From NCBI RefSeq assembly GCF_964213995.1, contig NW_027590140.1:1-64000 (forward strand): DNA of 64,000 nt. Reading direction: 5' to 3'. Positions 32,030 through 46,251 of this stretch are shown in pieces. Position numbers and translations under genes: made by a program. Within the stretch, counting starts at the first letter, position 1; every line of letters starts with the position of its first letter. The notes beneath the pieces were generated by a model. It was not told the origin of the DNA. It searched no databases and saw only the letters and a list, made by a program, of their open reading frames with translations. Source of the DNA: Mustelus asterias (Eukaryota).

Positions 32030-32960
32030 TTCGTGGCTGAGCATTTGTTTAAGTTCGATATTCCCGCCTGCTTCCCTTCGTTGCTGGACAGAAGAAATCT
32101 GTCTATCGCACAATGAAATGTGTTCAATGATGGAGCATCCAGAACCTTCTGGAAGAGAAAATGCCAACGATTCCCAACATTTTGAGTGGAGTAATTTCTC
32201 GTCATCGCTTCTCAGCCTTTTGGCTAAGATCAAGTGCAGCATCGACATGCTGTACTTGGTTGAAGCCACAAGGTTACATTGTAGCTTCATTTGAAGCATT
32301 TTTTAAAAGCAGCATCTCGGCCTTTTGGCTGAGATGCAAATGAGATCAAGCCTTGGAGCAGGTGCAATGCCTACTCCAATCAGCTTGGATCCTATAGATC
32401 AAGTCCAAGATAGGAGGTGAGATCCCTGTCTTGTCAGCTTGGACCGGGTATGTATCACTTGCTGCGACACTGAATTGGACTTTGATTGGATTGAATTGGA
32501 TATATAACCAACAAAACTATTCTCCTCATCTCAGTCCTAAATGTCCTAAAGTCTTTGTCCCTTATCCTGAGACTGTGTCCCATATTTTAAATCATTTGAG
32601 AATGCGAATGACATCTCAGAATGCATCCGATTTATTCCATTCATTCTTGTGTATGTTTCAATGAGATAGTATATCATTTTGCTGAACTCCAGAGAAATTG
32701 AGCCCAATTTACCCGATCTCGCATGATAGGACAACCCCTTCATCTCAGAGAATAGCCCAGTGAAGTTTTGTTGTACTGTCTCCATTAGATGCACATCCTG
32801 TCTTAAATGTAAAACACCAAAAATGCACACAATATTCCAAATGAGGGATTGGCAATACCCGGAGCAAATGCAGCAAGGCTTCAAAGGTTACGAAACTTGA
32901 CTCCGTACAAAAGACTGAAAGGAGAGCGTGACTGCGAATAATTGGCACTGTGCAACTTCC
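32030..32960 (-). mobile_element. Decayed CR1 3' end interrupted by the U2-headed element
   Basis: PHLEYCVHFW and METVQQNFTGL..MKGLSY peptides. The host sequence resumes at 32520. Confidence 0.75.
32204..32519 (+). mobile_element. U2 snRNA-headed SINE-like retroposed element
   Basis: U2 nt 1-40 at 32204-32243 (37/40 identical); second U2 head at 32312-32335; two hairpin units; (TGAAT/TGGAT) repeats; A-rich tail; flanking direct repeat ttctc(g/c)tcatc at 32196-32206 and 32520-32530. Confidence 0.7.
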
Positions 32961-40400: not shown

Positions 40401-40656
40401 ATAGGGTTCGTGGTGGGAAATAGGAAGGATATCAGAGGTAGGTTCTTTACGCAGAGAGTGGTTGGGGTGTGGAATGGACTGCCTGCAGTGATAGTGGAGT
40501 CAGACACTTTAGGAACATTTACGCGGTTATTGGATAGGCACATGGAGCACACAAGGATGATAGGGAGTGGGATAGCTTGATCTTGGTTTCTGATAAAGCT
40601 CGGCACAACATCGTGGGCCGAAGGGCCTATTCTGTGCTGTACTGTTCTATGTTCTA
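37460..40656 (+). mobile_element. Near-complete CR1 LINE: ORF1 esterase C-terminus plus frameshifted ORF2 (APE-RT)
   Basis: ORF1 WCRREGFRY..DLYKQDGVHLN (SGNH DxxH). ORF2 YFNARSI..AIAETW..GDFN..SDHN, FADDTKIGG, RPHLEYCVQFWSP. (TTCTATG)n tail; 12-bp duplication tgttctataact at 37448-37459 and 40657-40668. Confidence 0.95.
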
Positions 40657-40889
40657 TGTTCTATAACTCTCCCCAACGCCCCACCATGAACTGAGTAAAT
40701 CCTGCCGTGGTTCGATCTACCAAAATGCATCACCTCACATTTATCTGAAGTAAATTCCATCTGCCAGTCGTCAGGCCACTGGCCCAATTGATCAAAATCC
40801 CTTTGCAGTCCTTGAAACCGTTCTTTACAGTCCACTATGCCACCTATCTAGATGTCATCTGCAAACTTACAAACTGTGCCTCCTAAATT

Positions 40890-41055
40890 GGCGGGAGTAA
40901 CTATGACTCTCTTAGAAGGGTCTCACTAGAGAGTCATCTCTGGGTAGTTACCTCTGTGAATGTTATTGGCGTGTTTTGGCATTCACAGTGAAGTTGTGCC
41001 TCCTCGCGGCCCCGTCGGTAACCTTGGTGGCTTGCCACCAAGGGCTAAACAACTT
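40890..41055 (+). ncRNA. HDV-like self-cleaving ribozyme of an R2-type retrotransposon 5' end, including 28S rRNA target-site sequence
   Basis: P1 GGCGGG 40890-95 / CCCGUC 41011-16; P2 AAGUUGU 40991-97 / ACAACUU 41049-55; P3 GCC/GGC with L3 UCCUCGC; P1.1 GG 41017-18; P4 9 bp with CUUG loop, 41022-43; J4/2 GCUAA with the catalytic-position C at 41045. 40890-40914 equals the 28S sequence GGCGGGAGTAACTATGACTCTCTTA. Confidence 0.92.
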
Positions 41056-41863
41056 TGTTAAAAACAACGCAGAGACCGTAGATAGATAGTCCACAGAGAG
41101 ATTTGTGCGATTTGATATAGGCGGTTAGCGAAATGAATAATATTCCCGAAAAGGGGGAATCCGGATGGGTTGGGTCCCGGTTAAATAACAGCCCCCCAGA
41201 TGAGTCTGTAGCCGCTCTCTGGGAAAAATTCAAAAAGTTAGGCTATACTAGAACTAGCCCTAAGAAGCTAGAGACAAGTTCCGTCTCCACTCAAACAGAA
41301 GAGACGGTCTTGAGACCCGAGTTAAACTATCGGCACTATTGGGTGGTATATTCTGGTCCCAGTCCAGGTAAGGTAGCTACCCCAGTAGTTGAGGACATTG
41401 AACCTATTGTAGAGGAGCCCGTTCGGACGGCCATCCAACGGATGACGTAGTTGAGTTAACTACAGTTACCTTCTATAATAAGGCCTATAAAGCCCAGAAT
41501 ATGGGTTTGGGAAGCTTAGAAATAAGCAAAAATACCGTAAGCGATGTTGGTACTTCTGGTACCTTCATCGAGACTGTTAGCATAGAGCCAACTCAGGACC
41601 GAACTAAGGGTAGTATAGTTAATAGTTTTTAATTTTTCAGTCTTGATTCGGCCTATTCTATCAGTCCTGAGGTGGTGGAGTTTCGTGCACTGGGTACCAA
41701 CAACTTGGCTCGGTAGCCCCAATTAGATCTTGGGAGGGTAGTACCCCTGATTTGACCTTATAATCTGGCCTCAGTTTAGATTAGTAGTCCCTTGACTGTG
41801 AATTCGCTAGAGGTAGACAAACACGTCGACGAGCGACGTAAAGACTCGAACATGGCACTCATT

Positions 41864-42089
41864 NNNNNNNNNNNNNNNNNNNNNNNNNNNNNNNNNNNNN
41901 NNNNNNNNNNNNNNNNNNNNNNNNNNNNNNNNNNNNNNNNNNNNNNNNNNNNNNNNNNNNNNNNNNNNNNNNNNNNNNNNNNNNNNNNNNNNNNNNNNNN
42001 NNNNNNNNNNNNNNNNNNNNNNNNNNNNNNNNNNNNNNNNNNNNNNNNNNNNNNNNNNNNNNNNNNNNNNNNNNNNNNNNNNNNNNNNN
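41864..42089. other. Assembly gap (226 N)
   Basis: Run of N. Confidence 1.
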
Positions 42090-43559
42090 AAATACCAAAT
42101 CACGAACATAAATGACAAAAACGGTGGACCCAACACCGATCCCTGAGACAAACCGCTGGTCACAGGCCTCCGGGTTTGAAAAACAACTTTTGGCACCACC
42201 CTTTGTGTTCTGTCATCAAGCCAATTTTGTACCTATTTGTCATCTCACCCTGGATTCCGTGAGAATGAACCTTATGCAACAACCTATCATGTGATACCTT
42301 GTCGAAGCCCTTGCAAAAGCCCATGTAGTCAATATCAACTGCATTGCTCATGTACCTTCTTGGTTACCCCTTCAAAAAACTGCATTTAATTTGTGAGAAA
42401 TGATGTTCCACTCACAATGCCATGCTGACTCTCCCTAATCAGTCCTTGCCTCTCTAAATGCCTATCGATCCTGTCTCTCAGAATGCCTTCTAAAAACTTA
42501 CCCACTACAGATATGAGGCTCATCTCCCTGTAGTTTCCAGGCTTTTCCGTGCAGCCCATTTTAATCAAATACACAACATTTGCCACCCTCCAGTCTTCAG
42601 GCACCTCACTGTGGCTGGCCATGATTCAAATATCTCTGCCAGGGGAAAGTCAATTTCCTCTTTCGCCTCTCCCCCCCCCCCCCCCCGCCTCCCACAACGT
42701 CCTGTTATACACTTCATCAGGTCCCTGGGATGTATCTAGCTTGATGCACTTTAAGACATCCAGCACCTCCGTCTCTGTTACACGCCTCAAGACATCACTA
42801 TTTATTTCCCTAAGTTCCCGAACATTTTTTGCCTTTTACAAAACTAAATACCGATAAGAAATATTCATTTATCATTTCACCCTTCTCTTGTGGATCCGCA
42901 CATAAATTGCCTTGTTGATTCTTAATAGGTCCTACTCTCTCCCCTAGTTACTCTTTTACCCTTCATACATTTGTAGAAACTCTTTTGATTCTGCTTTGCC
43001 TTATCTGCCAAAACATTCTCGTGTCCTCTTTTTGCTCTCCTGAATCCTCTTATCTCTGCTTCTACACCCTCTATATTCTTCAAGGATGCATTTGATCCCA
43101 GCTGCCGGTGTATGACATTTATCTCATTCTTCTTCTTGACCAGGGCCTCAATATCCCCAGTTATCCAGCGTTCCCTCGTTCTACCAGCCTTGCCCATCAC
43201 GGTAAGAGGAATGTGCTTGTCCTGATACCTGGTTAACAGACTGTTGAAAGCCTCCCACTTACCAGACGCCTTTGCCTGCCAGCAAATTCCCCAATTAACT
43301 TTTGAAAGTTCCTGTCTGATAACATTAATATTGGCCTTGCCCCAATTTAGAATTTTAACTTTTGGGCCAGACCTATTGTTCTCCATAGCTATCTTAAAAC
43401 TAATGGAATTATGGTCACTCGTCCCAAAGTGATCCCTCACTCTCCTTGTGTCACCTGCTCTTCCTTATTTCCCAAGAGGAGATCAAGTTTCTCCCGCTCT
43501 CTCGTCGGAACATTGACATTCTGAAAGAGAAGTTCCTCCTGAATAAACTCGAAATTAAG

Positions 43560-44920: not shown

Positions 44921-44992
44921 GGGTCTATGTTGTAATGGTGAGCACTCTGGACTCTGAATCCAGTGATCCGAGCTCAAATCTCGATGGAACCT
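44921..44992 (+). tRNA. tRNA-Gln(CTG), probably a pseudogene
   Basis: Anticodon arm ctgga-ctCTGaa-tccag is intact, but there are G3:A70 and C49:A65 mismatches, G10>T and T54>C in the B box. Confidence 0.75.
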
Positions 44993-46179: not shown

Positions 46180-46251
46180 GGTTCTGTGTTGTAATGGCCA
46201 GAACTCTGGACTCTGAATCCAGCGATCCAAGTTTAGATCTTGGTGGGATCT
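46180..46251 (+). tRNA. tRNA-Gln(CTG), probably a pseudogene
   Basis: Intact anticodon arm; the T loop TTTAGAT lacks C56, the D arm is mutated and the acceptor stem has many GU pairs. Confidence 0.7.

Follow-up and report, generated by a model that had tools for sequence, protein, structure and literature searches.

An internally deleted R2 copy outside the rDNA of Mustelus asterias and recurrent short R2 remnants in the same genome

A 64,000-nucleotide stretch of the Mustelus asterias genome (hereafter the window; RefSeq assembly GCF_964213995.1, contig NW_027590140.1, positions 1 to 64,000 of the forward strand) contains a 1,205-base insert that derives from an intact, 28S-specific R2 element. 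The insert is one young copy of that element with an internal deletion, placed off target in a LINE and duplicated segmentally twice more. It probably goes back to one retrotransposition event, with a ribozyme-cut rRNA co-transcript as template, in which a jump in reverse transcription from the 3′ UTR to the 5′ region probably removed the middle 4.1 kb. We hold the structural facts (i.e. the structure, the parent, the single site, the empty alleles and the intact coding remnant) with high confidence, and deletion through a template jump with moderate confidence. This shortened shape arose independently several times in the genome and likely marks two RNA ends that are held by the R2 protein while copying.

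The template would have been RNA, i.e. an rRNA co-transcript cut at the predicted −28 position, because the 5′ end of the insert falls exactly at this predicted cut. This transcript would extend ∼220 bases into 28S and prime on a 3-base match to the target; the reverse transcriptase (RT) would then copy the 3′ piece and jump to the end of the ∼0.7 kb 5′ piece, both pieces being likely held or protected in the particle. The 5′ end would be joined bluntly with loss of 5 target bases, and the resulting copy, without an rRNA promoter, would be dead.

The insert, its parent and its host site

A search of the 3.68 Gb genome assembly with positions 40,880–41,863 returns matches that break at query positions 735–745, with the two halves ∼4.1 kb apart. 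An open frame of 1,297 codons that starts like the window ORF is present in 7 of the 16 fetched stretches. The intact R2, 5.1 kb long and encoding 1,293 amino acids, resides in the rDNA of the same genome; the insert is ∼99% identical to it and lacks 4.1 kb. In the reference copy (hereafter L031), R2 is flanked by 28S and measures 5,094 bases from leader to 3′ end. It has the defining features of R2, i.e. a single ORF, N-terminal zinc fingers and Myb, RT, endonuclease and the 28S site, with the zinc fingers (three) and the Myb-like stretch read by eye. The RT is recognized by Pfam and the protein matches solved vertebrate R2 structures (9dou, 9nl2 and 9nl3) at E 1e-216; the 9nl2 alignment begins at residue 163 of the intact protein.

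A second intact lineage (lineage B; L281 on C1867) is also found in rDNA, with a 1,300-codon frame and 867 of 1,284 residues identical to lineage A. A chimera at the 28S site (L043 on C2708) has an intact ORF of lineage A followed by a 3′ UTR of lineage B (99%), and a third form, 85% like lineage B and with 28S on both sides, lies near tandem R2-to-R2 joints (L335; C3, 96.56 Mb). The 3′ UTRs of both lineages contain a segment that is repeated genome-wide (L031 6776–6950) and that we take to be SINE-like. The rDNA arrays are probably collapsed in the assembly.

The insert occupies positions 40,890–42,094, with 42,095–42,097 compatible with either 28S or target; the preliminary description had placed its start at 41,056. 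Its parts are, in order, a 24-base leader from 28S, 0.7 kb from the start of R2, 0.26 kb from the end of the R2 3′ UTR and ∼220 bases of downstream 28S; in alignment with L031 it keeps 2200–2925 and then 7030 onward. The leader (40,890–40,913, + strand) corresponds to positions −28 to −5 of the R2 site, provides the 5′ strand of ribozyme helix P1 and is identical to the 28S sequence 5′ of intact R2 (L031 2200–2223). After a 5′ UTR, R2 ORF codons 1–161, i.e. the N-terminal stretch ahead of the first zinc finger, follow at 41,133–41,614 (+ strand; 99% identity to L031 2443–2925). At the deletion junction (41,614/41,615, + strand), L031 2925 is fused to 7030 with 4,104 bases gone and 1 base of microhomology. 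The distal 3′ UTR extends over 41,615–41,863 (+ strand; 98% identity to L031 7030–7278), and the R2 terminal bases and the ∼220 bases of 28S over 41,864–42,097 (+ strand). The sequence is AT-rich from the ORF region to the N run of the window. At its own locus in the assembly the insert has the same length and no N in place of the gap; there and in both duplicates, 235 bases match L031 7279–7513 at 98.7–99.1%. The earlier estimate of ∼1.2 kb is therefore correct, and the gap hides no RT or endonuclease sequence of several kilobases, only the R2 end and 28S. Also borne out is the earlier observation that zinc-finger, Myb and RT motifs are missing from the visible part; they are missing because the deletion starts just ahead of the first finger.

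The preliminary description had proposed that the ORF was decayed and that its coding capacity was lost before insertion. The 105-codon ORF (41,133–41,450) exists, and so does the second frame with four stops, but these stops are not a sign of decay: they are UTR read in frame, because all four lie downstream of 41,614, where the coding part ends, in the 3′ UTR (the first stop is at 41,630). Over its 482 bases, the coding part is separated from intact R2 by 2 substitutions and one deletion of 1 base, and the window differs from L031 at three of 726 5′ positions, none of them in the ribozyme. The deletion that shifts the frame (41,430/41,431, + strand) is private to the window copy, being found in 1 of 17 copies and absent from the two duplicates and 14 others; the undeleted base also occurs at this site in run contigs, which rDNA copies dominate. 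The duplicates on C71 and C90 have a single 166-aa frame composed of 161 R2 codons and five UTR codons. The ORF remnant is not decayed.

The host of the insert is an antisense LINE, presumably of the CR1 type, located off rDNA. Its left part (40,653–40,889, − strand) is a decayed RT region that is continuous with 42,095 onward in two empty paralogs (L195 and L196), in which the right part (42,095–42,210, − strand) is also found; the minus strand of these paralogs encodes QGSVLGP and KFADDI motifs. Compared with these closest two empty paralogs (97.9% and 99.0%), five target bases are replaced by the insert and there is no target-site duplication; the base to the left of 40,890 is target DNA by the same comparison.

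The deletion junction, sought with a 111-base probe, is found in 3 of 34 candidates (all 34 scored). The loci on C71 and C90 share flanks with the window over 36 and 31 kb as fetched (95.5–99.7%), and all 16 paralogous segments examined are empty. The three junction loci are segmental duplications or haplotypes, and represent one insertion event either way. An assembly artefact is unlikely, since the insert is present in three contigs. Furthermore, one run contig crosses the 5′ junction (40,772–41,196) and a second contains the deletion junction with 30 bases on the short side, which is one below the tool threshold; both runs come from a single study that is possibly the source of the assembly. 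No RNA data set is listed among those that contain the sequence, which speaks neither for nor against expression.

Recurrent internal deletions

At least 10 internal deletion events, with differing junctions, are recognized over several R2 lineages. Seven of the 10 retain 650–920 bases of the 5′ end and 200–470 bases of the 3′ end: the window copy (726/264), C8 (808/264), C3020 (733/271), C11 (∼765/250), C22 (∼655/205, also 5′-truncated), C4 (917/468) and lineage B (647/305). The other three lie beyond this range, i.e. C1591 (1189/1102), a copy on C8 at 5.05 Mb (∼475/55) and C14, which has several gaps. The interval was set after inspection of the data, so that the per-event chances of 0.012, or 0.14 given a short remnant, are descriptive only. 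Microhomology at the six junctions read to base level is 0–3 bases, which fits end-to-end jumping. The 3′ breakpoints fall in or near an AT-rich stretch that follows the repeated segment at L031 6776–6950.

The nine deleted rows of a 37-row tree require seven label changes, at least five of them on starred branches, and a single clade for the deleted copies is rejected (p-AU 0.001). This tree took 37 of 41 loci (C170, C14_91M and two C8 duplicates were omitted), and covers the deletions other than those of C22 and lineage B. No junction is common to independent sites among those checked (window, C4 and lineage B), and the C4 junction occurs at 1 locus among the best 40 of 140 candidates. An R2-dependent short family, as first suggested, is thus not what the window junction represents, as it marks one duplicated segment; short forms of this kind do occur repeatedly, at scattered places in the R2 tree and with junctions that differ. 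Splicing was considered as the cause of the deletions and rejected, because in none of the window, C8, C3020 and C11 copies is the joined sequence what splicing would produce (judged by eye); donor- and acceptor-like motifs occur near the window junction.

An explanation to which we give lesser weight is that the deletion arose first in an rDNA unit and that the short RNA was moved in trans by the R2 protein, in which case the window copy would be the one known daughter of a nascent short internally deleted element (SIDE). Such short forms do exist in the rDNA. A 966-base deleted lineage-B R2 that retains a complete ribozyme and the 3′ end lies at the 28S site (L277 5822–6787) and occurs in four rDNA units, three on C347 and one on C1591, at 99% identity to its parent. 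Four of the five near-identical lineage-B 5′ ends in rDNA belong to this short form, which is the best SIDE candidate of this genome and has what a SIDE requires. Two further deleted forms are present in rDNA contigs. Moreover, the deleted copy on C8 has the same 3′ breakpoint as the window, together with the four preceding bases, and the study that described a Drosophila SIDE favoured recombination in rDNA over jumps in the text consulted (PMC3414825). Against this, the window junction is in no rDNA copy (34 of 34 candidates scored). The four lineage-B units are 99.97–100% identical over ∼8 kb and have one odd 5′ junction in common; three of them are adjacent, between empty units, so that array expansion of one event is the simpler reading. 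The C8 copy carries ancestral alleles at 2529, 2734, 2819 and 7127, at which the window has modern ones, so that the two most likely come from different full-length parents; on this allele order we reject the C8 copy as the source of the window copy.

Two complex arrangements were also noted. On C3020, a 5′-truncated R2 and a deleted R2 with its start at the leader stand back to back in an inverted rDNA joint (L044), which is either a true twin insertion or an assembly chimera. On C1591 (L036), a deleted R2 is followed by 630 bases of 28S and then by a full R2 beginning in the leader, which may represent a large target duplication that was reused.

Ribozyme and ends of the dispersed copies

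An HDV-like ribozyme is predicted at 40,890–41,056 (+ strand), with helices P1 (40,890–95/41,011–16), P2 (40,991–97/41,049–55), P3 (40,998–41,000/41,008–10), P1.1 (41,002–03/41,017–18) and P4 (41,022–30/41,035–43) and a predicted catalytic C at 41,045; the helix names are our assignment by analogy with HDV-like ribozymes. P1 uses the 28S leader, all pairs are complementary in the window and the folding z is −3.2. Manual pairing and a table of 24 copies (24 of 37 rows, near-identical young copies and two tandem joints having been removed) both give the nested double pseudoknot of P1, P1.1, P2, P3 and P4 with the J4/2 C. Pairing over the 24 copies is 114/144 in P1, 144/162 in P2, 65/68 in P3, 40/44 in P1.1 and 199/206 in P4 (79–97% per helix). 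P2 and P4 include changes on both sides of a pair, all copies have the J4/2 C (24/24), and the first P1 pair is G–U in 14 of the 24 rows. The earlier description of a perfect ribozyme holds for the HDV-type fold, but Rfam returns no match for it, either at the gathering threshold or with E relaxed to 10. Rfam and ARAGORN contribute nothing on the insert as a whole. The further claim that selection preserved the ribozyme is not supported: the window and intact R2 differ at 0 of 168 ribozyme positions and 3 of 482 ORF positions (Fisher p = 0.57), and the perfect state of the window ribozyme reflects the young age of the copy.

The genome has at least 41 loci with an R2 5′ end, of which at least 23 are insertions of independent origin that carry the leader but no upstream 28S. 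To obtain this number, duplicates were collapsed and several classes of locus excluded, namely rDNA units, two odd rDNA joints, three 28S fragments and two tandem joints. Among the matches listed outside rDNA, the 5′ start is exactly at −28 in 13 of the 23 and 1–8 bases inside it in the other 10, and is upstream in none. These 13 starts are evidence for an RNA template and offer indirect genomic support for the predicted self-cleavage at −28, a position of tested cuts in other R2 ribozymes (PMC3774820). A T precedes 12 of the 13 copies that start at −28 (binomial 3e-6 at the window T content, calculated post hoc), and is demonstrated as target DNA for the window and C4 only. Identity of the dispersed copies to the current element ranges from 99% down to ∼70%. 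Separately, four duplicated segments (L063–L066, on C170, C132, C107 and C71) carry a ribozyme-only fragment of 156 bases that is 100% identical to current R2.

These ends also bear on whether the cDNA or RNA was captured in some other way, i.e. by a LINE or Penelope RT or by DNA break repair, instead of R2 target-primed insertion, which we regard as unlikely. The window copy fits such a capture in having no target duplication, a loss of 5 bases and a 3′ end that lies 220 bases into 28S, beyond the usual R2 end, at a 3-base match to the target. For many old dispersed copies, only 5′ parts are seen within 10–20 kb, and on C15 (81.3 Mb) a lineage-B R2 5′ piece (34–685) lies between inverted arms (L327 9248–9899) and was apparently captured by another element. 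However, where a dispersed copy has a 3′ end, in most cases it is the normal R2 end, and the bases after it are TA, TAG or TAGCC-like. A target-site duplication is found in 1 of the 11 two-ended dispersed copies examined: the old deleted copy on C4 (L108) has one of 105 bases that starts with the 28S-like TAAGCC. The T that precedes copies starting at −28 likewise speaks against other capture, since R2 in this genome joins 28S after TT. The C15 piece ends close to the deletion hotspot.

SIDEs, other R2 systems and the retained 5′ region

SIDEs are characterized by an internal deletion that brings a 5′ ribozyme next to the R2 3′ end, one junction at several independent insertions, location at the 28S site with co-transcription, and divergence from the parent with RNA structures kept. 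The window copy has the first of these features. Its junction marks a single insertion, it lies off the 28S site, where the lineage-B short element is located and would be co-transcribed, and it is ∼99% identical to its parent. As first described, it is indeed a non-coding derivative of R2 that lies outside rDNA and is short through an internal deletion, and the breakpoint is common to the three copies of the duplicated segment, but the frameshift is found in the window copy only. It resembles the first step of a SIDE, yet is not a member of a SIDE family, being at one site, off target and undiverged. That it belongs to an established vertebrate SIDE family with decayed coding and a retained ribozyme is very improbable: two-ended short copies recur (10 events, most off rDNA), but independent sites have no common junction, the coding part shows no decay and identity to the autonomous element is ∼99%, compared with 64% and 81% in the R2 SIDE of Drosophila.

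The latter, R2Dwi_SIDE of Drosophila willistoni, resembles the window copy in that its 5′ ribozyme is fused to the R2 3′ end by an internal deletion and it has no RT coding capacity; as described in the text consulted, it is 529 bp long and multi-copy at the 28S site, with varied junctions and 64%/81% identity to its parent (PMC3414825). In contrast, the window copy is one off-target insertion with 99% identity that keeps 161 codons and a 28S tail. The parent resembles the lineage-A, three-zinc-finger vertebrate R2 elements, including those of sharks and rays, in its zinc fingers, Myb-like stretch, RT and canonical 28S site; the vertebrate copies covered by the consulted text of that work are embedded in rDNA, whereas the window copy is dispersed and deleted (PMC13188248). 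Extra-rDNA R2 copies of Drosophila are likewise often incomplete and 1–2% diverged, and non-28S R1 copies carry upstream 28S bases (PMC2718515). The present genome differs in having at least 23 leader-bearing insertions with ∼1–30% divergence and one marked cut site, and in showing clustered breakpoints, for which the consulted part of PMC2718515 gives no counterpart. Engineered avian R2 (PRINT) also yields gapped inserts, its off-target sites share little beyond downstream bases complementary to the primer, and its 5′ ends are end-joined with little microhomology (PMC11371274, PMC11331408). PRINT products are, according to these texts, cell-culture events at 0.1–1%, whereas the copies described here are germ-line fossils left by a native element.

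Shark R2, extra-rDNA R2 in flies, and gapped and off-target products in cells are therefore already known. Among the main texts listed in the literature searched, none describes a vertebrate R2 SIDE or a record of dispersed shark R2. The window copy itself is ordinary, and the set of copies around it is useful. As R2 underlies site-specific gene insertion tools, this genome provides a long natural record of R2 off-target insertions, of the ribozyme cut site and of internal deletions. The set also shows possible beginnings of SIDEs and why SIDEs rarely persist.

The 5′ part that the deletions retain has properties of its own. Between lineages A and B, fourfold sites are identical at 26 of 41 positions in the retained 5′ ORF part versus 96 of 295 elsewhere (p = 2e-4). 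Protein identity is 47% over codons 1–161 and 77% in the RT, and third positions of residues common to both lineages are identical at 44 of 70 and 166 of 423, respectively. Recombination between A and B, of which C2708 is an example, could be an alternative source of this low synonymous divergence. In lineage A, the folding z of the first 750 bases is −3.8, −4.2, −3.0, −1.0 and −4.8, versus 0 to −1.5 for the next 750 bases; in lineage B it is weak (−2.0 to +1.7), and covariation contributes only −1.6 kcal/mol to the 5′ ORF fold. These patterns hint that both R2 RNA ends may be held or protected, with the RT jumping between them.

The Bombyx R2 protein binds a 5′-ORF RNA (323 nt) and a 3′-UTR RNA (249 nt), and these match in position the parts kept by the deletions here, the likeness being one of position and binding in the shark element being predicted (bioRxiv 10.1101/2023.04.07.536001). 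The consulted text of PMC12180492 reports that a 5′ region like that of Bombyx was not found in other R2 elements and describes a functional 5′ ORF RNA in A-clade R2 as open; the retained 0.7 kb is a defined piece for testing this. We tentatively suggest that vertebrate lineage-A R2 RNA might, like that of Bombyx, contain a structured, protein-held module that spans the initial 0.7 kb and takes in the codons ahead of the zinc fingers, that RT jumps to or from the 3′ UTR might keep spawning 1-kb SIDE-shaped elements, and that the lineage-B form in four units might be a nascent vertebrate SIDE.

Elsewhere, the window has a degenerate U2 match (32,204–32,395) and two tRNA-like matches (44,921–44,992 and 46,180–46,251), and the whole window region is duplicated on many small contigs.
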